Of a stretch of DNA of 64,000 nucleotides, positions 5,583-63,377 are shown piece by piece. Within the stretch, counting starts at the first letter, position 1. The number at the start of each line of letters is the position of its first letter. The position numbers and the translations under genes were made by a program. Origin of the DNA: Candidatus Parcubacteria bacterium (GTDB taxonomy: Bacteria > Patescibacteriota > Minisyncoccia > Phycocordibacterales > UBA5272). The stretch spans positions 5,874 through 69,873 of the forward strand of contig JBDKJD010000001.1 in assembly GCA_039796775.1 (NCBI GenBank), read 5' to 3'. The notes under the pieces are model-generated. The model was not told the DNA's origin. It made no database searches and was given only the letters and a program-made list of their open reading frames with translations.

Positions 5583-8500
5583 TTATCTATTTTGTTGATA
5601 TTCTTTAAAAATAACAATTCCGGCCCTCAGTATTTTCCATACAAAAATACATGCTGTCTTAACAATCCCAGGCTTATTCTCAAAAGCTACTGTTAGATGC
5701 GCATATTCCTTTCCTGGGAAACGATAGAATAATACTGGTATAAGGATGAGAGTGAGGATAATAGCAAATGCGAGTCCGAACATGATAGTAAATGCAAGCG
5801 GCCCCCAAAGTGTCGATACAGTTGCAAGAGGTATCATCCCAACCACTGTCGTTACTGTTGTCAAAAATATAGGTCTCAAACGAACAGCGGAAGATTCAAC
5901 AATAGCTTCCAAGAGGGAGAAGTTCTGGCTTTCTTTCTCTAGAGCTAATCGTTTCAAGATGGAGTCTAATAATATGATCGCATGATTAATAATCACTCCA
6001 GCTAAAGCAACAAGACCGAGCATAGAAGAGAATGACAATGACTGCCCGGTTAATGTGAGACCGAACAATACACCAATGAGCGAGAGGGGGATAGTGAGGA
6101 GAAGGTACATTGAATATCGTAATGAGTTAAACTCAAGAACCAAGATAGCGAGCATCCCTAGCATCCCAACAATAAGTGCTAGCCCCATTTCTTTGAACGT
6201 TCTCTGTACATCTTCATTTTCTCCCCCATACACAACTTCAACAGAGGAAGGGATATCAAGCTCGGCTTCTCTTTTTTGAAAAGCATTCACAACTTCTATT
6301 GCATTAGCCCCACCTTCTAACCCAGCCGTGATTCTCGTATAACGCTTACCATTATCATGATTGATTTCATTTTTGCTTGTGCCAAGAGATACACTCACCA
6401 GTGATCCAAGCGGAATTACTTGAGAACTATTTGTCGTTACTGGCAATTGCTTAATAGCATCAATTGTTGCAACTGAAGTATCTTCAGGATTAATAAAAGA
6501 ATTGTTGAGATCAACTTTGACGACAATGTCTATATCTTCTTCTTGTTTTGTTATCGTTGTAGCATTCACTCCGGAGACTGCGGTTCTTAATATTTGAGCC
6601 ACAGTAAGAGGATTTAACCCTACCTGTGAAGCTTTTGCTCTGTCTACTTCTATGTTGAATTGAGCACCATCATTTTTAAGTGAGGTTTCGATATTTTTTG
6701 CTCCGCCTATATCATTTAATAATGTCTCACCCTTATCTGCTAACAGTGAAAGTTCTTCGAGTGAATCTCCTTTGAAAGTGATAACAATAGGTGCGCCTGA
6801 TGGTGGGCCATTGTTACCTTGTTCTACTTTTATGAATGCACCATTAATAACTGATAGTTTTGATTCAAGATAGGGGATGAGTTCAGTTGAAGTCATTTCC
6901 TTTTCTTGTTTGAGATTAACGGTGATATTAGCTAACTTTGTATTCTGTCCTCCTCCGTTATTAGAGAATACAGATGACGCACCAACTGTTGTGATAAACG
7001 ATTCAATATAAGGCTCCTCATAAAGAATTTCTTCAACCTGTCTCACATAAAGATCAGTATCCTTAAGCGGTGTCCCTTGTGGTCGCTCAACAGAAACATA
7101 GATCGCATTCTGCTCTTCTTGTGGAAAGAACTCTACGTTTAAAAATCCAAGGACTGGTAGGAGAATTGAAGTCAAGAGAGATATTTTTAGAAAATTAAAA
7201 AACTTATTCTGAAAATTACTATTTTGTAATATCTTTCGAAGAAAATCCTTGTACCAATTCCTAGCTTTAACGAAATATTCTTCTTGAATCCTAATCAAAC
7301 GATTTTCTGACACTTCACTTGTTGTGTGTTTTTTGTCAGATAACAAAATAGCAAGAAGTGGGACCATTCCAAGAGCAACAAAAATAGACGCAATGAGAAC
7401 GAAAATAATAGTGAATGGTATTGAAGAGATAAATTGTCCTACAACTCCAGAGAGGAAAAATAGTGGGGCAAATACAGCAACAGTAGTCATTGTTCCTGCT
7501 ATAAGAGGCCAGGCGTATTCTCGTATTGAATCTTCAGCTGCCTTATAAATATCCCCATCATATTTATCTTTCTTTGTATGTATGGCTTCTGCTATTACAA
7601 TACCTGAGTCCACTAATATTCCTATCGCCAAGATAAGAGAAAATAGTGACAAGAAGTTAATAGTATTACCAGATGCATACAAGCCAATGAATGCAATCAC
7701 AAAAGAAAGCGGAATAGAGAGCCCGGCTACAATACTTTCTCGCCATCCTATTGTCAAGAAGAGCATAATCATCACCAAGATAACAGTCTCTATACCAACA
7801 CGGAATAGCTGCGTGAGATCTTTCTTCACTTCTTTACCAGCATCAAAAGAGACAACGACAGATGAATCAATAAGAAGAGATGACTTAAGTTCTTCGATTT
7901 TTGCTTTAACGTCTTCACCGATGACTGTCACGTCCCCACCTGATTTTTTGTACACATTAAGAGAGATACCGTATTTAGAAGGTTCTCCATCCAATGAAAT
8001 TCGAGAGTATGTAGTCGGTGGAGCGATACCATCAATGGTGGTAGCAATATCCTTCAAATAAATTGTTGCACCATTTGTTGTTGATATAGGTATTTGAGAC
8101 ACAGTATCAATATCTTCTATTGATCCAAAAAACTTAATAGGGTAATCAATTGAAGACACGGTAATAGTTCCAACAGGAAGAGAGCTATTAGCTGCAGAGA
8201 TAGCTTGTAAGACTTGAGGGATTGAGACATTATAGCTTGCTAATTTGTCTTTGCGTAAGATTACCTGGAATTCTCTATCTCTTACCCCAGAAAGCTCCAC
8301 CTTAGATACTCCTTTTATTTTTTCTAATTCTTTTTCTAGACTTTTACCGAGCGCTCTTAATTGAGCTGGAGCTGAGTCAGAAGAAATAGAGAAGATAAGA
8401 ATTGGCTGTTCAGAGAAATTGATTTTGTTAACAGATGGTTCCGTTGCATCTTCTGGTAACTCATTCTTAACTTTATCTACTGATTCTTTGAGCGCTGCAA

Positions 8501-10976: not shown

Positions 10977-10983
10977 GCATCTT

Positions 10984-11005
10984 TTATCTTAGCATGCTAA
11001 GATAA
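10984..11005. promoter_or_regulatory. Perfect 22-bp palindrome (ttatcttagca|tgctaagataa), a candidate MarR operator.
   Basis: It lies 8 nt upstream of the marR-like start codon. Confidence 0.45.
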
Positions 11006-11136
11006 AAAAGTGAATAAGTACACACAATAACTTCAGTGCAAAGGACAGTCTGTGTCGCTCTATAGAATCTAAACAAAAGAACCCGCTTGGTGGGTTCTTT
11101 TGTTTTTATCTTACTCTAAAGATGATGATTCGATAC

Positions 11137-14668: not shown

Positions 14669-14700
14669 AAAAAAAGAAATGCCAGCTCCGCGGAGCTGGC
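14669..14700 (-). terminator. Rho-independent terminator on the minus strand.
   Basis: gccagctcc-gcg-gagctggc is followed on the minus strand by atttcttttttta. Confidence 0.5.
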
Positions 14701-14965
14701 ATTTGGACGAGTATTCGGCTAACCTTTACAGAGGTTCTCGTTCGCGCGATTTGTGTCAAAATAGGGTTTTATTGCCTAAAGACATCTTAATGTTATCAAA
14801 CATGAGAAGAGGAAGTCAATAAGTCGACTTACTCCTTAGTTGCAACATCTCGTGTAAAGAAGTAAGTTAGCCAGAGGGAAGTATGAGAATGCGGTGAGTG
14901 CATAAAAAGAAATCCACTGAATCACGCTGACCTTTCTTAATAAAATAAATTATCAACTTATACTA

Positions 14966-14989: not shown

Positions 14990-15180
14990 ATGGGGAAAGT
15001 TATACCATTTAGTCCAGAAGGAAGAAAAAAATACTTGATACTGAATCTGAAGTAAACGATACAGCTTCAAAAGATTCTAATGAACCTAAAGTTACGGGCC
15101 ACAAAAAGGCAATTGAAGAACTTTGTCAGATAATGAAACCGGGACAAGACTTTGCAAATGCGGTTCTGCGCTATTTGTGA
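14990..15180 (+). pseudogene. Small ORF interrupted at an A7 run; with one extra A it would encode a 63-aa protein.
   Basis: MGKVIPFSPEGRKK stops after 21 aa. The adjacent frame continues ..LDTESEVNDTASKDSNEPKVTGHKKAIEELCQIMKPGQDFANAVLRYL to a TGA at 15178-15180. Confidence 0.3.
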
Positions 15181-15220: not shown

Positions 15221-15252
15221 AGCCACGGGGTCAGTTAGGGTGACAATTTAGG
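15221..15252 (+). repeat. Imperfect inverted copy of the tRNA-Asn 3' end and flank (gccacggggtCAGTTAGGGtgaca versus the minus-strand tRNA end cccacggagcCAGTTAGGGgtac).
   Basis: About 18 of 24 positions match, including an exact 9-mer. It is a candidate boundary or recombination site for the integrated element. Confidence 0.35.
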
Positions 15253-15309
15253 TCCAAATGGTACACAGGTTCAGAACTTTTAATTGGGCTAATGTAAAAA
15301 ATAGTTTTC

Positions 15310-15942
15310 TTACACAGAGTCCTCAATAACTTCTTTTGGTGACCCTAACGCCTTTGATGAACGCCAACGAAACGATCTTTCGAAAAAACCAGTCACTTCT
15401 TCAAAAATTGAATTAACATCGGATTCCGTTATCTCTTCCAAAATTTCTTCTGGATGAAGAACCTCATTTCGTGTGATTCTTGTTATTGTTCCATTAGAAA
15501 ACTGATCTTTATCTATTATATTCTTTTCATAGAGAAGTTCTAATCTTTTAAAAAGACTTAACTTTTTTTCTCCAGGGTTTTTAATCAAAGAATTAACATG
15601 GGCTTCTAGAAGTACACCACATAAAGCAACAACACTTCTATTTAAACTTGCTGACTTAGCTTTAAGTAGCTCCATATAAGTATCTTTATAGTTGTCAGGT
15701 AACCATGAAGGGATAGTGCCTACATACTCTTTTGGGAAAACTGATTTTAGATTTCTTGTTCCATTTATTCCATTAGTGTACTCAGCAACAATCACATGCC
15801 CACCCGGGCAGTAAAGAGTTTCAATACTTATGCCATTTCTTGGAGTAAAGCTAGACCTTACCTCAAAATAGCTATCCTTTCCACACCTACTACACGTCCC
15901 AGACCAAGTTGCTTGCTGGGTATTAAATTGTATTTCTTGCAT
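15310..15942 (-). CDS. Protein with an N-terminal zinc ribbon and a C-terminal DUF4145-like helical domain.
   Basis: The N terminus has CSRCG...CPGGH. The C terminus (..LFKRLELLYEKNIIDKDQFSNGTITRITRNEVLHPEE..) matches the DUF4145 pattern as I recall it. Confidence 0.5.
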   Translation of the reverse strand: MQEIQFNTQQATWSGTCSRCGKDSYFEVRSSFTPRNGISIETLYCPGGHVIVAEYTNGINGTRNLKSVFPKEYVGTIPSWLPDNYKDTYMELLKAKSASLNRSVVALCGVLLEAHVNSLIKNPGEKKLSLFKRLELLYEKNIIDKDQFSNGTITRITRNEVLHPEEILEEITESDVNSIFEEVTGFFERSFRWRSSKALGSPKEVIEDSV

Positions 15943-16139
15943 TTAAGATATTCACAGTTAAATTTTATAAGACTGTAAAAAAGATATAAATCATGATAGA
16001 GTTAAGTTAGTTAAACTAAAATATATGATCACAAGACTTCTGTTGTCGCAGGGGTCTTGTTTTCTTTTCTACAATTCAAGTGTACACAATGTAAGGTAAA
16101 AGCCATTATTTTTGTCTTATACAAGAGTGTCAATAGTTT

Positions 16140-16193
16140 GACTTGACGTCAAGTCTGTTGCATATATAATAAACCTTTATCCTATAAAGGTTT
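16140..16193. promoter_or_regulatory. Two palindromes: gacttgacgtcaagtc (16 bp, perfect) and aaaccttta-N5-taaaggttt.
   Basis: They lie in the spacer between the DUF4145 and DUF559 genes and are candidate protein-binding sites. Confidence 0.3.
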
Positions 16194-16330
16194 ATAGTGA
16201 AAGATCGCAAATCGATGTACTTCAGCGTTAACTAAAAGTATTTCCTATTTATGGTAATCCACATGTACCTTACCTCCAAGGATGTCTTTTGGTTTATGAC
16301 GCTCATCTTTAACCACAGAAACATAATGTT

Positions 16331-16681
16331 TTAGTGGTTATTTGAGATAACCTTTACTATCGCTTCTGCAATCTCTTTTGCATGTGTTTCCACTAGTATA
16401 TTCGGTATATGTTTTACAAAAATATCTTCCTTGTTTGAAAAGTAGTCTCTATGAAAATCTGCATCTATTTGTGATGCGTTAAGGTAATGCTGCGCCCCAT
16501 CAATTTCAAGAGCAATCTTTGCCTTTGGTATATAAATATCAATATGTTTGTGTCCATCCCAGTATTCAAGTTCTAGATCAACACCAAGTGCTTTAAGCTC
16601 ACTTGCTAGTAATAATGCTTGAGGTGTTGATTGTATTAGTGGCATAAAAAATAAACAACTGAAATACAAAAAGCCCACCAC
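16331..16681 (-). CDS. DUF559 / endonuclease-domain protein.
   Basis: KIALEIDGAQHY...DADFHRDYF...VKHIPN fits the DUF559 restriction-endonuclease-like fold pattern. Confidence 0.55.
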   Translation of the reverse strand: MVGFLYFSCLFFMPLIQSTPQALLLASELKALGVDLELEYWDGHKHIDIYIPKAKIALEIDGAQHYLNASQIDADFHRDYFSNKEDIFVKHIPNILVETHAKEIAEAIVKVISNNH

Positions 16682-16880
16682 GTGAGTGAGAGCTTACGCC
16701 CTCCATACCCGTTTCCAGGTACGGCCGTTCAAGACAAATCCCACATGATGGGTTTTTTATTTTGAACGGGCTTTTCACCATGCCAATATTGCTATTGGTT
16801 TAGGCTACTTGTATTCAGTTGTATCTATATAATAACGTAGAAAATGACAAAATAAAAGAAATTAAGTAGTATACAGGGCA

Positions 16881-17792
16881 ATGGAGGCTAGTAAAATTAA
16901 AACTGAATTGGAACAACTCTATAGCTTGATTCCTGAAAAAATAAAGAGAGAAGCTGAACCTCCTCTTGATTTTGCCGTCGAAAAACCGATAGATTTTCTT
17001 CGTACCTTATATAACTATGTCGACTATATTAAGAACAAGGAGTTACTACAAAAAATAATTACTGTAGAAAAAGAAAGAAAAGCGCAAGAGTTAATTAAGC
17101 TTGCAAAATCTTCCATGGAGTCTAGACACGCTCATGAACATTTTGATATCTTTCAAGATCATATCAAGGAAGAAAAAAGAAACAACGATGAGGTTGATCA
17201 AGATCCAATTTATAACTACGGGCTTCTTCTTGATGCATATGAATCTTTTGAAATAATTAAAGATTTAAAAACAGAAGAGGAAATGCGCAAATTTCCAATC
17301 GTACTAAAACGAGAATCGCCATACGGTAACTCCACAAGTAATTTTTATGGGTATGGATTATTAAACCTGGCCATGTTCAGATACCCTGAACCAGGGCATC
17401 TTCACATTTTTTTACTTAACGCGCTAAATGAACTTGAAAGAGGAAAACCATTAAACAAATATCTTGAATATGATAATGAAAATGGTGTTTTATATTTTAA
17501 TGATCAAGTAATAAAAATACGGGTTAAAAATTCACCGACAGTAGGCGCACACCTACTCCTACAATACCTTGTTAAGAATAAGCCATTTGAAAAGCATGGT
17601 TATTATGAGTTCAATGATAACAATGTTTTTCTTGATGAAAAATCAGCAAAAGCATGTCTACACATTTGTAACGATATTCAAAAAAAAGTTTTGGAAAATA
17701 CTGGAATACCTGACTTTTTGGATTACAACACCGGAGAAGATATGTATGTTCGAATTAATCCAAAACATTCTTTAAATATAACCGACAAATAA
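16881..17792 (+). CDS. Hypothetical protein of 303 aa.
   Basis: It is a long ORF with a hairpin terminator (ccgacat...atgtcgg) immediately downstream. Confidence 0.5.
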   Translation: MEASKIKTELEQLYSLIPEKIKREAEPPLDFAVEKPIDFLRTLYNYVDYIKNKELLQKIITVEKERKAQELIKLAKSSMESRHAHEHFDIFQDHIKEEKRNNDEVDQDPIYNYGLLLDAYESFEIIKDLKTEEEMRKFPIVLKRESPYGNSTSNFYGYGLLNLAMFRYPEPGHLHIFLLNALNELERGKPLNKYLEYDNENGVLYFNDQVIKIRVKNSPTVGAHLLLQYLVKNKPFEKHGYYEFNDNNVFLDEKSAKACLHICNDIQKKVLENTGIPDFLDYNTGEDMYVRINPKHSLNITDK

Positions 17793-17799
17793 CCATTCC

Positions 17800-18195
17800 G
17801 ACATGTTCCGGGAAAGATGTCGGTAACAGTGTGTCATAAAGTTGAATCATCCTAATCAAGGATGATTTTCTTTTACTAAGGGTGATTTATTGAGGGGTTT
17901 GCATTTGGCACGATACTCTCGATTACTCACTTATATAAGCAGACCTTTCGGCGGAGCGGAAAGGTCTCTAGCGTACAGCATTAAGCACACAGGCTTTTGC
18001 CTTGTCAAACTCGAACGGAGTTTACGGAGTGAGTTTGATAAGGATAAAAGCTGTGTGCTACGAGAGCATTCCCGAGCGACCGATTAAAGCGAAGGGAATG
18101 ATCTTGTGCGCGAAGCGCGTGCACAAGTGACATCCGGAGGACGGCGCGCAGTGCGTATTTGCATCTGTTGACTCGACTAAACATACACTTACGGA
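17800..18195 (+). promoter_or_regulatory. GC-rich cluster of stem-loops upstream of the Rep gene, a candidate rolling-circle origin (dso).
   Basis: Hairpins include ccgacatgttccgggaaagatgtcgg, aatcatcct-aatcaa-ggatgatt, agacctttcggcggagcggaaaggtct and cttgtgcgcgaagcgcgtgcacaag. The local GC content is well above the surrounding DNA. Confidence 0.4.
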
Positions 18196-18198
18196 GAA

Positions 18199-19068
18199 AT
18201 GAGAAATCCAATAATCTACAAAAAGAAAATAATAATCTCTGGCTCAACAGTTGAGATTCTTTCATACGAGATACCGATAACACATGGTTTTGAAATATCT
18301 CCTAAGTGGAGAGAAAAGAGGAGACTGGCGAAGTTATCGGCTAAAGCAAACCTATCAGAGCAACAATTGCAAGAACGAAGAAAAAGAAACAGAAAACTAG
18401 CCATGATACGAGCAAGTAAAACACTCATACGACTGATTGATTGTAATGTATATCAATACAAAAATACCGTAGGAAGAATCTATCTTCCTGTCTTTCTTAC
18501 GCTTACATTTAAAGAAGACGTACGAGAACAAAAAGAAGCCAATAGACTGTTTACTCTTTTCATAAAAAGACTGAACTACCATGTAAACAAAAAGATCAGA
18601 AACCCACTCAGGTATTCTGTTGTTATCGAGTTCCAAGATCTTAATCGTAAAGGGGTAATTCATTACCATACTCTTTTCTATGATCTGCCATTTATACGAA
18701 GTACAACACTAGAGAATCTCTGGGGAGAAGGTTCTATTAATATCAACAAAGTACATAAGGTTAAGAAGATTGGACTATATGTTTCTAAGTATATGTCTAA
18801 GAATTTTGAAGACCCTCGACTCGATGGACATAAACGATACTTTTCAAGTAGAGGACTTATCAAGCCTAAGACGTATGCAGGAGAGGAAGCGTACAGAATC
18901 GTTAAGTCTGTCATACCTACAGAGGTAACTGTTAAGGTGAGTAACTTTACTACTGAGAAACTTGGCAGTGTAACAAAGGAACTATTTTCTTTTCCTGAGA
19001 AGGAGCATATAGGCGAGCATATCTCCTCTGAGTTTAGGGAGTTGCTTGAGAAGTATGACATTTCCTAA
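18199..19068 (+). CDS. HUH-superfamily rolling-circle replication initiator (Rep), phiX174 gpA / RCR-plasmid type.
   Basis: Motif I is FLTLTF, motif II is HYHTLFY (HUH), and motif III is YVSKYMSK (YxxKY double tyrosine). The order and spacing are correct. Confidence 0.75.
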   Translation: MRNPIIYKKKIIISGSTVEILSYEIPITHGFEISPKWREKRRLAKLSAKANLSEQQLQERRKRNRKLAMIRASKTLIRLIDCNVYQYKNTVGRIYLPVFLTLTFKEDVREQKEANRLFTLFIKRLNYHVNKKIRNPLRYSVVIEFQDLNRKGVIHYHTLFYDLPFIRSTTLENLWGEGSININKVHKVKKIGLYVSKYMSKNFEDPRLDGHKRYFSSRGLIKPKTYAGEEAYRIVKSVIPTEVTVKVSNFTTEKLGSVTKELFSFPEKEHIGEHISSEFRELLEKYDIS

Positions 19069-19212
19069 TCAAGTTATTAAAACTGAAGCGACTTCTAGTG
19101 TGGTTACAGATGAAGATATCAAGAAGCTCGCAAAACTGTATGCATGGCTTATAAAGGAGCACAAAAAGCAAAATCCTGACTTATACAAAAAGAAGGAGTA
19201 TAATTAGAAATT

Positions 19213-19983
19213 ATGAAAACAAAGCTTCAGAAAATTAAAAATTGGATTGTAAGAGACGATCTCGATCTTAGTGCTAAATGGTGGCATAGATTACTTAAGG
19301 TTCTTTTTATAATATCTTATTTATTGGTAGCATTTTATTTTTTGAATCTACTTGCAAACTCATACTCAAGTATAATTAATAGATGGGTTTTTGCTGATGT
19401 GTTATCTTCAAGATTACTTAAACCAGAGTATACAGGCAAAGTCTTTTCTATCTATGAACTACAAAAAGACAACGAGGTAATAAGTACACTAGATCAGGTA
19501 TATTCTAAAGATGGATATAGTCCGAGTTTAGAAGCAAAAGAAACACTGAGACCTTATTCATCGCTATTTCTAGTGAGCAACCCTCCAGTTCAAAGTTTCT
19601 GTTCAGACAAACTTCCTGAAAAAGTTAAAGATATTGCTCTAATGAACAACATTAAATTTTTTTCAGATGAGAACCCAAGATTTGATAAGCTCACAAATAA
19701 TATTGATTCTTTTATTTCCTATCTTGACAGTAAATCATTTACTATCAAGTGTGTTATGGTTGATAGTTATACAATAGTTAATAATGACAGCACAGAGTCT
19801 ACATATAAGTTTTTGAGGCCGGTCAATACATACGATTACTCGATCTTCAGATATGAAGACGGTAAATTACTTTTGTTACTTGCAATTGTAATAGGCGTTT
19901 TCTTTTATTTTATTTCTATTTTTATATGTCTAGTTATTTATTACAAAATAATACTTTATATAGTTTTTGGTAGCAAAAAATAA
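19213..19983 (+). CDS. Hypothetical membrane protein with N- and C-terminal transmembrane segments.
   Basis: It is 256 aa. Its stop is adjacent to the recombinase start (taaATG). Confidence 0.5.
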   Translation: MKTKLQKIKNWIVRDDLDLSAKWWHRLLKVLFIISYLLVAFYFLNLLANSYSSIINRWVFADVLSSRLLKPEYTGKVFSIYELQKDNEVISTLDQVYSKDGYSPSLEAKETLRPYSSLFLVSNPPVQSFCSDKLPEKVKDIALMNNIKFFSDENPRFDKLTNNIDSFISYLDSKSFTIKCVMVDSYTIVNNDSTESTYKFLRPVNTYDYSIFRYEDGKLLLLLAIVIGVFFYFISIFICLVIYYKIILYIVFGSKK

Positions 19984-21513
19984 ATGAAAGCAATTATCGT
20001 AGCAAGAGTCTCCACAGACGAACAGAAAGAAAATTCTCCTGATGCTCAGATATACAGAATGGAGAGATACTGCGAGAATAAAAATCTAACTATTATTGAA
20101 AGGTTCAGCTTTGTTGAGAGCGCTTACAAAACTAAACGTGATGAATTCGATAAAATCTTATCATCGGTAAAGAGCACAAAAGAAAGAGTTGCTATTTGCT
20201 TTGACAAAGTTGACCGACTCTCTAGAAACATATTCGACAAGCGAGTAGCTTTGCTGTACGAGAAAGCTATTAATAATGATATTGAACTTCACTTTGTTTC
20301 TGATGGTCAGGTGATAGACAGTAACATCTCTGCGGGTGATAAATTTGCCTTTGGAATGAAGCTTGGTCTTTCTAAATACTATTCAGATGCGATCAGCGAT
20401 AACGTGAAGCGTGCATTTGAACAAAAGCGAAGAAATGGTGAATGGACTGGTAGTGTACGACTCGGGTATCTTAACGTTACCTTAGACGAAAGCAAGAGAC
20501 TTCGAAAGGATATTATTGTTGACCCTGAAAGAGGGCACCTCATAGTTAGAATGTTTGAACTCTACGCTACAGGACTATATTCACTAGAAACTATTCGTCT
20601 ACAAATGATCGATCTCGGACTAAGGACACTCAAAGGTAACAAGCCTTCAAAGAGCGGTATTGAGAATCTTCTTAAGGATAGCTTTTATTGTGGTGTTGCT
20701 ATGTCTCCTAAATATGGAAACTTTCACCACAAGTACCCAAGACTTATCTCAAGAGAACTTTTTGATCAATGTCAAGATATACGAAATGGACGCAACCTTC
20801 GTAAACATAAGTCTGTATCTAAGGAAGTTCTCTTTAAAGGACTTATTACTTGTGATCGTTGTGGTTGTACCATGACACCAGAAATAAAAAGGAAACCTAG
20901 TGGTAAGGAATATGTATTCTATTCTTGTACCAATGCCAAGAAGATATGCGAAAGGATATATGTTAATGAGAAGGAGCTTCTTAAGCCAATTTATGACATT
21001 CTAGACAGATTCCAATCTATATCCCAAGAGACACAGGACAGACTAATTAAGGAACTCAAATCAACCAATCAAGTAGAATCTGATTTTCATAAAGCGCAGA
21101 TTTCCAGAATTAACAGTGAACTTGATATGATCAAAATAAAGCAAGATAAGCTTCTAGACGCATACCTAGATGAGCGTGTTACAGAGGAACAATTTAGCCA
21201 AAAGCAAAAAGAGTATTCTCGTCAGACAGGATTACTTGAGATTGAAGCTAGTGAGTACAGAAAGGGGGATTTTAGCTATCAAGATACCGTAGCTCAAATA
21301 ATTACAATATCTCGAGAAGCAAAGGATATTTTTGAGAAGAGTTCTGATGTTGCCGGAAAACGTGCTTTTATCAATTCACTAATTCAGAACCCGACCGTAA
21401 ATAAGAAAAAGCTATGTTTTACCATAGCTTCTCCTTATAATTTAGTACTAGAACTTGCTAGTACCCCTAACTGGCTCCGTGGGCAGGGATCGAACCTGCG
21501 ACCAACTCGTTAA
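19984..21513 (+). CDS. Large serine recombinase with a resolvase/invertase catalytic domain, a recombinase domain, a zinc ribbon and a coiled coil.
   Basis: The N terminus is MKAIIVARVSTDEQ (catalytic Ser). A Cys cluster (CDRCGCTMTPE...YSCTN) is present. Its 3' end overlaps the tRNA-Asn gene by 42 nt on the opposite strand. Confidence 0.85.
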   Translation: MKAIIVARVSTDEQKENSPDAQIYRMERYCENKNLTIIERFSFVESAYKTKRDEFDKILSSVKSTKERVAICFDKVDRLSRNIFDKRVALLYEKAINNDIELHFVSDGQVIDSNISAGDKFAFGMKLGLSKYYSDAISDNVKRAFEQKRRNGEWTGSVRLGYLNVTLDESKRLRKDIIVDPERGHLIVRMFELYATGLYSLETIRLQMIDLGLRTLKGNKPSKSGIENLLKDSFYCGVAMSPKYGNFHHKYPRLISRELFDQCQDIRNGRNLRKHKSVSKEVLFKGLITCDRCGCTMTPEIKRKPSGKEYVFYSCTNAKKICERIYVNEKELLKPIYDILDRFQSISQETQDRLIKELKSTNQVESDFHKAQISRINSELDMIKIKQDKLLDAYLDERVTEEQFSQKQKEYSRQTGLLEIEASEYRKGDFSYQDTVAQIITISREAKDIFEKSSDVAGKRAFINSLIQNPTVNKKKLCFTIASPYNLVLELASTPNWLRGQGSNLRPTR

Positions 21514-21546
21514 CAGCGAGCTGCTCTACCGCTGAGCTACCACGGA
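21472..21546 (-). tRNA. tRNA-Asn (anticodon GTT).
   Basis: A manual cloverleaf gives: acceptor TCCGTGG/CCACGGA, D arm GCTC-AGCGGTA-GAGC, anticodon stem with loop CTGTTAA, T arm GCAGG-TTCGATC-CCTGC, discriminator G, encoded CCA. Confidence 0.9.
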
Positions 21547-21718: not shown

Positions 21719-21752
21719 AAAAAATCTCAAACGAATTCGTTTGAGATTTTTT
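21719..21752. terminator. Bidirectional hairpin terminator.
   Basis: aaaaatctcaaacg-aatt-cgtttgagattttt is a perfect palindrome flanked by A and T runs. Confidence 0.45.
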
Positions 21753-23615: not shown

Positions 23616-23739
23616 GGGAGGTATTGAACTTTAAGCTGTTAACTTTGATCCTAATAAAAATGCGAGACTTCTGTCTCGCATTTTTACTGATGTCATGTAT
23701 CACTTACAATGACTTTTGCTATTTGCTAACAGTCAACGA

Positions 23740-42419: not shown

Positions 42420-42462
42420 AAGAATAGTATATAGTTACTGGTTAGTAGTTGCTAGTTAATAG

Positions 42463-42493
42463 CAAAGGACAGGCCTTCGGCCTGTCCTTTGCT
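42463..42493. terminator. Strong GC stem-loop (14-bp perfect stem, UUCG loop) with no U-tract.
   Basis: gcaaaggacaggcc-ttcg-ggcctgtcctttgc lies between the GH18 gene end and the scpA start. Confidence 0.4.
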
Positions 42494-44131: not shown

Positions 44132-44231
44132 AATGAACTCCTGTTGTTACACTAAATACAGTATAGAATATTTAAAAAATTAGTCAATATTGACTAATTT
44201 TTTAAATATTCCTATTTATTTTGTGTCAACC

Positions 44232-49657: not shown

Positions 49658-49757
49658 ACTTTCTTAATTACCTATAAATAACCGTATTCTACTCTTTTGT
49701 ATGAAAAAGAAAAGCGCGACCTTCGGTCGCGCTTTTGTTATCTGTGTTAGTTTTTCT

Positions 49758-50299: not shown

Positions 50300-50427
50300 A
50301 AAAGTATATATATCAAAAGTAAAGCAAGTAATCGAGCAGAGAATAAAAAAACAGAAGTGAGGCTATTAACCTCACTTCTGTTTTTTTCTATACTCTTATA
50401 TTCTGGGGGGGTTATTCTAGGGCTTAG

Positions 50428-63272: not shown

Positions 63273-63344
63273 GACAATCCTTCCATTCCACGACCTACGT
63301 GAACCTGAAACAAACTCTATACTTTTTTATTATTATTTGCAAAA

Positions 63345-63377
63345 TAAAAACACTGGGGCCTGCTCCAGTGTTTTTAT
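63345..63377. terminator. Bidirectional rho-independent terminator.
   Basis: aaaaacactgg-ggcctgct-ccagtgttttta has A and T runs on both sides. Confidence 0.6.

Follow-up and report, generated by a model that had tools for sequence, protein, structure and literature searches.

A divergent RAZR homologue and a LOOT-preceded mini-nuclease gene on a small tRNA-Asn-associated element of a Parcubacteria bacterium

RAZR, the ring-activated zinc-finger RNase of Escherichia coli (Zhang et al., Nature 2026, PMC13017515), is the new name of PD-T7-4 (Vassallo et al. 2022, PMC9519451). It is encoded by a single gene and acts by abortive infection. Its N terminus is a Cys4 zinc ribbon, its DUF4145 domain is a divergent HEPN RNase in which R146 and H154 are essential, and, once assembled as a 24-mer around a phage protein of ring shape, it cleaves single-stranded RNA (ssRNA) non-specifically (PMC13017515). 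Here we describe a RAZR-like gene found in a stretch of 64,000 nucleotides from a Candidatus Parcubacteria bacterium (assembly GCA_039796775.1, contig JBDKJD010000001.1, positions 5,874 to 69,873), which is referred to below as the window. The gene appears to be carried by a small mobile element, where it neighbours a mini-nuclease gene that is preceded by an RNA of the LOOT family (Table 1).

Candidate phyla radiation (CPR) bacteria have tiny genomes, and to our knowledge little about their phage defence has been established by experiment. The described systems closest to the nuclease are the small Vsr/DUF559 (PF04480) endonucleases, such as NGO0050 (3hrl), E. coli Vsr (1cw0), and the catalytic domain of the homing endonuclease I-Bth0305I (3r3p). 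The LOOT motif, RF03000, comes from Weinberg et al. 2017 (PMC5737381).

The best explanation of the locus, and one that we consider fairly probable, is that an element inserted at tRNA-Asn carries two independent accessory units at the end far from its recombinase, namely, a LOOT-nuclease unit of the element backbone and a RAZR-family cargo gene that acts alone. The first unit would consist of the LOOT leader followed by a 104-aa nuclease of the Vsr/DUF559 fold, with a transcript that probably ends at the hairpin at 16169-16195. The second would be the gene for a 210-aa protein with its own promoter-like site and conserved 5' region. In that case an abortive-infection RNase of the RAZR type would reach its Parcubacteria host on an element of ~6 kb; in a sister element, the corresponding slot holds a TIR gene of the Thoeris type.

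The 210-residue protein and its likeness to RAZR

A sequence-only reading of the window had described proteins of 210 and 116 aa at this locus, and both open reading frames (ORFs) are present where it placed them, at 15310-15942 (210 aa) and, read from a GTG, at 16331-16681 (116 aa), on the minus strand. The 210-aa product is 100% identical to NCBI RI935_20, a protein from a metagenome-assembled genome of Candidatus Parcubacteria. The motifs that the sequence-only reading had quoted from it were recovered as CSRC...CPGGH and ...ITRITRNEVLHPEE, and that reading had proposed a zinc ribbon followed by a helical DUF4145-like domain of a kind that recurs in defence. The DUF4145 assignment was borne out by a hidden Markov model search (PF13643; E = 3.8e-7; 30.5 bits against a cut-off of 23.1; residues 92-182), and the alignment of homologues showed the two-part architecture to be real and conserved. 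The defence context also stands for this gene, its architecture being that of the experimentally characterised RAZR/PD-T7-4 (PMC13017515; PADLOC match; PDB 9y9c).

The cryo-electron microscopy entry of RAZR, 9y9c, was the only meaningful sequence match of the 210-aa protein in the PDB (single-sequence E = 0.008), with ITRITRNEVLHPEEI of the protein aligned to ICRIVGNQAVHPGEI of 9y9c. A profile of the 12-sequence family matched the same entry at E = 2.9e-5 and aligned collinearly, residues 16-178 against 15-172, a stretch that takes in the two zinc knuckles, the xLPDN/MPDN linker, and RIxxNxxxHP. Among phage protein families, phrog_1305 covers residues 7-188 (PHROGs; E = 8e-15). The sole PADLOC match of the protein was PD-T7-4 (PDLC04109; E = 1e-4; 19.8 bits), which was matched by 4 of the 12 clade members (best E, 4.8e-15), and no other PADLOC family was matched. 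Because the protein's own match is weak and four of the 12 clade members match, its membership in the RAZR family is transitive and distant.

The predicted zinc ligands of the ribbon are C17, C20, C45, and H49 (C17xxC20 and C45xxxH49), in two knuckles that align with C16xxC19 and C49xxC52 of 9y9c. C17, C20, and C45 are invariant in the 12 homologues. Position 49 is His in nine of them, while the other three, the most distant homologues, have Cys instead, two or three residues past C45 (CxC or CxxC). In the C-terminal domain, the segment R155-ITRNEVL-H163 holds both the RAZR-type R-x7-H and the canonical HEPN R158-N-x3-H163. R155 and H163 align at equal spacing with R146 and H154 of RAZR, where the corresponding segment is ICRIVGNQAVHP. 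N159, H163, and P164 are invariant among the 12 homologues, whose identity goes down to 27%, and R155 and R158 are nearly so. The C-terminal DUF4145 domain with the HEPN fold that defines a RAZR member is present, and the AlphaFold 2 (AF2) model (mean predicted local distance difference test score [pLDDT], 79.7) has a beta-rich N-terminal domain, with six strands in residues 1-70 (pLDDT, 79-91), and a helical C-terminal domain.

The protein is close to RAZR in length (210 versus 219 aa), in the matching positions of the two zinc knuckles within the N-terminal ribbon, in the (L/M)PDN of the linker, in its C-terminal DUF4145/HEPN domain with RIxxNxxxHP and the same Arg-His spacing, and in being encoded by a single gene on mobile DNA. 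It differs in its very low sequence identity (the profile and single-sequence E values given above) and in its second knuckle, which is CxxxH in this clade and CxxC in RAZR. It also differs in the extra canonical HEPN Arg of the clade, R158, where E. coli RAZR has Gly, and in its host, a Patescibacteria (CPR) bacterium. On this comparison the 210-aa protein is a divergent, full-length RAZR/PD-T7-4 homologue that adds a member to a defence family already described, and by homology with the E. coli protein it is probably a single-gene abortive-infection RNase.

Several observations weigh against this assignment. Similarity to E. coli RAZR is low, both in the PDB search (single-sequence E, 0.008) and in the protein's own PADLOC match (19.8 bits), and a Foldseek search with the 210-aa protein did not return 9y9c. 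The pLDDT falls below 50 in the catalytic loop (residues 162-164) and in the C-terminal 16 residues. The fourth zinc ligand of the clade is His, not Cys, the RAZR oligomerisation residues D179, D180, and R184 are without assessable equivalents in the 210-aa protein, and phrog_1305 carries the annotation "DNA binding protein." We know of no phage of this Parcubacteria host, so no trigger can be named for the protein. The clade is rare, with 15 clusters among 1.84 billion representatives and, by profile search, 11 among 5.8 billion sequences, and the comparative context consequently rests on few, short contigs. Relatives were found neither in metagenome or viral contigs with a 5-sequence RAZR-like alignment nor in phage genomes with tblastn of the 210-aa protein.

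If the protein works as its E. coli homologue does, the zinc ribbon would bind large phage proteins of ring shape, for example, portals, and the protein would oligomerise around them. The assembly would bring the active sites of the HEPN domain, with R155 or R158 and with H163, into position for non-specific cleavage of ssRNA, upon which translation would halt and the infection would be aborted. The RAZR-like gene would act alone in this, without the nuclease. The RAZR mechanism, characterised in E. coli in 2026, would thereby be extended to a very distant lineage, and the Cys3His ribbon and canonical R-N-x3-H HEPN motif of the clade would be natural variants for studying how the sensor specifies its trigger.

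The nuclease gene and its relation to the RAZR-like gene

For the nuclease gene, the most likely start is the ATG at 16645 (104 aa), as NCBI annotates it (RI935_21), and not the GTG at 16681, which falls within the hairpin and U-run that follow the LOOT RNA. The sequence-only reading had called its product a DUF559 protein. We judge both of its domain calls, DUF4145 and DUF559, to be right; PF04480 scored 17.7 bits, under the gathering threshold of 20.6. The 104-aa protein has the Vsr-type PD-(D/E)xK fold in a confident AF2 model (mean pLDDT, 88.6). Its coherent family comprises 16 homologues of 103-113 aa, except for one called at 155 aa, in which D30, H32, K33, H34, D36, E47, G50, H53, D63, R66, and N82 are invariant; a precomputed PF04480 match exists for 4 of the 16.

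Invariant residues of the family, among them D36, E47, H53, and D63, may correspond to the catalytic acidic and His residues of the Vsr/DUF559 endonucleases (D...ExDG..H), and the JGI name for the homologues is "very-short-patch-repair endonuclease." The 104-aa protein differs from these endonucleases in being minimal, without an extra DNA-binding domain, and in being preceded, in this element family, by a LOOT RNA. The usual companion of Vsr is a Dcm-type methyltransferase gene; none turned up among the scanned neighbours of the nuclease. A search of IMG/VR for the nuclease family gave no match. Patescibacteria contigs with a chromosomal copy of the mini-nuclease gene have a SAM (S-adenosylmethionine) riboswitch 5' of a SAM synthetase gene (L125, 2644-2761; equivalents in L126, L127, and L128).

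The two genes lie 388 bp apart on the same strand of a mobile element, with palindromes between them, and the sequence-only reading had suggested that they could form a small defence or addiction module. In such a two-gene, toxin-antitoxin-like module the palindromes would serve as operators. The co-occurrence check found no such pairing outside the window: about eight other nuclease contexts are without a RAZR-like gene, and the four informative RAZR-like contexts are without a DUF559-like neighbour. The remaining nuclease homologues stand in unrelated contexts without LOOT, and the neighbours of the RAZR-like relatives differ in every context examined. These relatives are located past a tRNA-Val gene (L001), a tRNA-Arg gene (L270/271), and a partial tRNA-Glu gene (L002), and in L268 the relative stands beside a type IIG methyltransferase/Eco57I gene. 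Given further that sister elements keep the nuclease and swap the gene downstream of it, that the 388-bp gap contains a strong hairpin and a promoter-like site, that the palindromes are not kept in the closest relative, and that RAZR acts as a single gene in E. coli, we regard a two-gene module as very improbable.

Small genes upstream of the RAZR-like relatives in L268 and L270 were considered as DUF559-like partners and rejected. Neither matches the nuclease profile; one is low-complexity and probably a spurious call, and the other overlaps a tRNA gene. At tRNA-Val and at tRNA-Arg, which are unrelated contexts, the RAZR-like relatives start exactly 256 nt past the tRNA 3' end (L001, 1-331; L270, 736-1065; L271, 568-897), with spacers that have no sequence similarity.

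The sister elements in L124 and L178 contain a tRNA gene, a serine recombinase, a rolling-circle replication initiator (Rep; 37-38% identity), and, behind a LOOT RNA, the nuclease gene; L178 also has an orf303-like gene (27% identity) in the same position as here. L218-220 have Rep, LOOT, and the nuclease in common with these, and a tRNA gene in the corresponding position. The gene order of the sister elements is tRNA, serine recombinase, small ORF, Rep, small ORF, orf303-like gene, and LOOT followed by the nuclease gene, and the tRNA is tRNA-Glu, abutted by the element, in L124 and L178 and tRNA-Gln, at the corresponding place, in L218. The cargo past the nuclease is a zinc-ribbon membrane protein in L124, a transmembrane protein and a ThsB_TIR gene (E = 4e-25) in L178, and two zinc-ribbon proteins in L218-220; the RAZR-like gene is absent from all of these elements. 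Judged by this comparison, the LOOT-nuclease unit is conserved backbone and the RAZR-like gene is variable cargo, which groups the nuclease with LOOT and the rest of the backbone. In the RAZR-like slot of L178 (6918-7624), the gene for the 114-aa transmembrane protein overlaps the ThsB_TIR gene, a possible minimal Thoeris-like pair of a Parcubacteria bacterium; the nuclease of L178 is 93% identical to the one described here.

The perfect 16-bp palindrome reported between the genes, GACTTGACGTCAAGTC, was located at 16140-16155. The second inverted repeat is also present and is longer than had been claimed, reading ATAAACCTTTAT-N3-ATAAAGGTTTAT with perfect 12-bp arms at 16169-16195. In Markov shuffles ~1.1 perfect 16-bp palindromes are expected per 64 kb, so that the palindrome alone is weak evidence, and hairpins with perfect arms of at least 12 bp are expected at 0.025 per 64 kb. 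The window has ~10 long perfect hairpins (arms of 12-23 bp), far more than shuffled sequence, and mostly just past stop codons, so the genome appears to use them as terminators; long perfect hairpins are probably its terminator style. Such hairpins were recorded at 10982-11007, 14677-14704, 21719-21752, 23655-23686, 42461-42493, 44166-44211, 49710-49736, 50345-50387, and 63344-63377.

The comparison with L003, which holds the closest relative of the 210-aa protein (86% protein identity), separates the parts of the intergenic region. The last ~130 nt 5' of the RAZR-like ATG, including the hairpin at 16031-16060, are strongly conserved, and neither of the two palindromes is. The promoter-like match, TTGACA-17-AATAAT, which is a match to the consensus only, has its -35 block (ACTATTGACAC) kept in L003 and its -10 box not. 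The 16-bp palindrome carries TTGACG on both strands, abuts the -35 box, and is at most a candidate local operator or bidirectional -35 element, while the hairpin at 16169-16195 is likely a bidirectional terminator that closes the LOOT-nuclease transcript. Most simply, the palindromes are a terminator hairpin and a non-conserved promoter-region palindrome, and the hairpin and promoter-like site between the genes suggest two transcription units. A 17-nt block, TATGGTAATCCACATGT (16250-16266), is unchanged between the window and L003, within DNA that has otherwise diverged. The small ORFs on either strand differ in length, and the block is therefore more likely a DNA or RNA signal.

The palindromes, the zinc ribbon, and the annotation of phrog_1305 could also be accommodated if the 210-aa protein were a DNA- or RNA-binding regulator, for example, a repressor, with a non-catalytic HEPN-like domain and the palindromes as its binding sites, all the more as the perfect palindrome overlaps promoter-like boxes. 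We consider this improbable. R-x7-H, R-N-x3-H, N159, and P164 are kept in homologues down to 27% identity, as for an active HEPN RNase, and the motif aligns with the essential R146 and H154 of RAZR. Moreover, the palindromes are not conserved, and since the gene is absent from the sister elements, it is not a core regulator of the element.

The LOOT RNA and the genes that follow it

The LOOT RNA went unmentioned in the sequence-only reading. It matches RF03000 over the whole model (1-121 of 121) with 85.7 bits against a gathering score of 46.4 (cmscan), and it lies immediately upstream of the nuclease gene, in the same orientation, with the nuclease ATG 42 nt on. The same arrangement of LOOT and nuclease is found in L124, L178, and L218-220, and the hairpin and U-run that follow the RNA are identical through CTTTTTG in L124, L178, and L218. 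Other LOOT copies are located in L124 (5835-5954), L178 (5818-5948), L218 (4390-4520), L068 (5520-5654), and L096 (2421-2538).

A first, loose LOOT pattern gave more than 120 matches in IMG/VR, of which, after pre-screening, Rfam confirmed two. A stricter pattern retrieved 84 loci from GTDB genomes, and ~80 of these were confirmed by a covariance model built from four Rfam-verified copies. The four matches that failed the model were all in metagenome-assembled genomes (MAGs) from outside the Patescibacteria, and the confirmed loci are nearly all in Patescibacteria MAGs. In 75 of 77 confirmed loci LOOT and the next gene are co-oriented, and that gene starts 51 nt (median) beyond the model end; the genes upstream are of mixed orientation (47 versus 30). 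The downstream genes are highly varied, and among their products are zinc-ribbon and membrane proteins, DUF4352, SNase, NucS-like nucleases, Mrr_cat, T5orf172/MUG113, DUF2726, a type III methyltransferase, and an Ltp-like lipoprotein. Many of these genes match PADLOC candidate defence families, and nuclease, defence, and moron families are plentiful among them. A large serine recombinase is present in 31 of the 84 loci, often ~200 nt off, and a terminase in 12, and on two IMG/VR phage contigs LOOT stands in front of a NucS-like nuclease gene. L068 (4403-7071) is a phage contig of Patescibacteria type on which, beside a terminase gene, one strand carries in order the gene for a reverse transcriptase (RVT_1; E = 1.6e-22), LOOT, and a gene for a NucS-like PD-(D/E)xK nuclease.

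Conservation extends beyond the model on both sides. Upstream, ACAAYTKAAT occurs in 48 of 80 loci, 33 of which have a TATAAT-like box a further 4-12 nt upstream (~40%, 33/80), and downstream a GC-rich stretch is followed by a U-run, with a GCTGGCGnGGGGCTTTGTGT-like tail that resembles a weak terminator. The Rfam model may be too short at both ends. LOOT is an sRNA (small RNA) gene in Rfam, whereas here and at ~80 other loci, which lie in Patescibacteria prophages and integrative elements, its behaviour resembles that of a promoter-proximal 5' leader to a co-oriented, highly variable accessory gene. No account of LOOT function was found in the literature searched, which did not include the supplement of the defining paper, where the context may already be noted.

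Co-orientation at 75 of 77 loci, the tight spacing, the weak hairpin and U-run behind LOOT, the abundance of nuclease, defence, and moron genes downstream, and the position of LOOT, nuclease, and RAZR-like gene on one strand would all be expected if the three formed a single LOOT-controlled unit. LOOT would then be a cis leader (attenuator or antiterminator) and read-through would express both genes. This seems unlikely to us, as the 12-bp perfect hairpin and the promoter-like site split the nuclease from the RAZR-like gene, and as the RAZR-like gene occurs with its conserved 5' region in L003, L001, L002, L268, and L270, for which no LOOT turned up with the covariance model or in the flanks.

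A wider proposal, which we put forward tentatively, has two parts. In the first, LOOT is a promoter-proximal leader that gates a hypervariable cargo slot in Patescibacteria mobile elements and not a free-standing sRNA. The cargo of the slot would be nucleases, defence genes, and surface or superinfection-exclusion proteins, control could be exerted by attenuation, processive antitermination, or infection-state sensing, and the LOOT-nuclease unit, possibly with the RAZR-like gene by read-through, would be one RNA-gated defence slot. In the second and separate part, the RAZR-like clade is a CPR-adapted branch whose Cys3His sensor is tuned to ring proteins of CPR phages. For the present locus we retain the reading of two independent units, a LOOT-nuclease unit and a RAZR-family gene. 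LOOT, a by-product of this analysis, may matter more than the genes beside it, as an orphan structured RNA with a clear, testable genomic grammar that consists of a -10-like box upstream, a co-oriented variable gene ~50 nt downstream, and a home in prophages and integrative elements. This context is the part most worth pursuing.

The mobile element and its proposed boundaries

The sequence-only reading had treated both genes as cargo of a mobile element, and the locus does contain a serine recombinase and a Rep, next to an insertion site at tRNA-Asn. Housekeeping genes flank the region, those for an ABC transporter and a dehydrogenase on the left and those for HPF and cyclophilin on the right. 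The last 14 codons of the recombinase overlap the tRNA-Asn gene, and we infer an element at ~15236-21470 (~6.2 kb) that is inserted at the tRNA-Asn 3' end. After insertion by a serine integrase, the two attB half-sites stand inverted on either side of the element. An inverted 16/18 match to the tRNA-Asn 3' end plus 7 nt (21465-21482) lies at 15223-15240, past the stop codon of the RAZR-like gene and before the dehydrogenase gene; no direct repeat of the tRNA-Asn 3' end was found there. As reconstructed, attB, CCACGGGGTCAGT-TA-ACTGGCTCCGTGG, and attP, ...TAGTACCCC-TA-GGGTGACAATT..., are both imperfect palindromes.

One consideration tells against placing the RAZR-like gene inside the element. 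The left boundary rests on this single inverted match, which has a BLAST E value of ~1 in a 9.4-kb search space and is therefore meaningful only through its position, and it is formally possible that the gene could lie just outside. An empty tRNA-Asn site was not found, relatives of the flanking dehydrogenase being mostly 24-34% identical and without synteny, and so the left boundary stays inferred.

Family scans detected no structural or packaging genes in the element, and orf303 and orf256 had no family hits in these or the PHROGs scans. A search of IMG/VR for Rep gave no match, and the element is not represented there. Like serine-integrase integrative elements, and like moron or defence cargo at prophage ends, the locus has a large serine recombinase adjoining its tRNA target and, at the opposite end, variable defence-type cargo, be it a RAZR-like protein, ThsB_TIR, or zinc-ribbon proteins. 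It differs from this class in its very small size of ~6 kb and in its rolling-circle Rep of the ORF2/G2P type.

Table 1. Features of the element and its surroundings, in window coordinates
Feature	Position	Strand	Evidence
Putative left attachment half-site	15223-15240		Inverted 16/18 copy of 21465-21482
RAZR-like gene, 210 aa (NCBI RI935_20)	15310-15942	-	ORF; PF13643; phrog_1305; PADLOC PD-T7-4; PDB 9y9c
DUF4145/HEPN domain, residues 92-182	15397-15669	-	PF13643
Predicted catalytic motif R155-ITRNEVL-H163	15454-15480	-	Alignment with RAZR and family conservation
Zinc-ribbon sensor domain, residues 1-70 (CxxC...CxxxH)	15733-15942	-	Family alignment, RAZR alignment, AF2
Hairpin, 13 pairs, in 5' region of RAZR-like gene	16031-16060		Terminator-like scan; kept in L003
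Sigma-70-like promoter match TTGACA-17-AATAAT, towards RAZR-like gene	16105-16133	-	Consensus scan, 11/12
Perfect 16-bp palindrome GACTTGACGTCAAGTC	16140-16155		Repeat scan
Hairpin, 12-bp perfect arms, 3-nt loop	16169-16195		Repeat scan
17-nt block TATGGTAATCCACATGT	16250-16266		Unchanged between window and L003
Vsr/DUF559-fold mini-nuclease gene, 104 aa (NCBI RI935_21)	16331-16645	-	ORF, homologues, AF2
Weak hairpin and U-run CTCACTCACGTGGTGGG CTTTTTGT, between LOOT and nuclease ATG	16666-16690	-	Terminator-like scan
LOOT RNA (Rfam RF03000), here 5' leader of nuclease gene	16688-16806	-	cmscan
Conserved LOOT flanks	16807-16835 (5' side) and 16666-16690 (3' side)		LOOT loci L134-L217 compared
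orf303, backbone gene, diverging from LOOT	16881-17792	+	No family hits; homologue in L178
Rolling-circle replication initiator (Rep)	18199-19068	+	PF23343 REP_ORF2-G2P, E = 2e-20; phrog_3584, phrog_3419
orf256, backbone gene	19213-19983	+	ORF; no family hits
Large serine recombinase (integrase)	19984-21513	+	Resolvase, Recombinase, Zn_ribbon_recom; phrog_95, E = 1e-71
tRNA-Asn(GTT), integration target, 3' end abutting element	21472-21546	-	ARAGORN and Rfam

The reading frame of the serine recombinase runs 40-75 nt into the target tRNA gene both here (19984-21513 and 21472-21546) and in L178 (1956-3533 and 1922-1996). Since the frame enters the tRNA gene, the C terminus of the protein would differ between the integrated and the excised form. 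The attP core here (ACCCC-TA-GGGTGAC) resembles the far junction of L178 at 7815-7840 (GCCC-TA-GGGTCAC); the two recombinases are only ~21% identical, and the likeness may be a coincidence. Just outside the putative left attachment site, at 14991-15180 on the plus strand of the window, lies a small ORF of ~63 aa that is seemingly frameshifted in an A-run.

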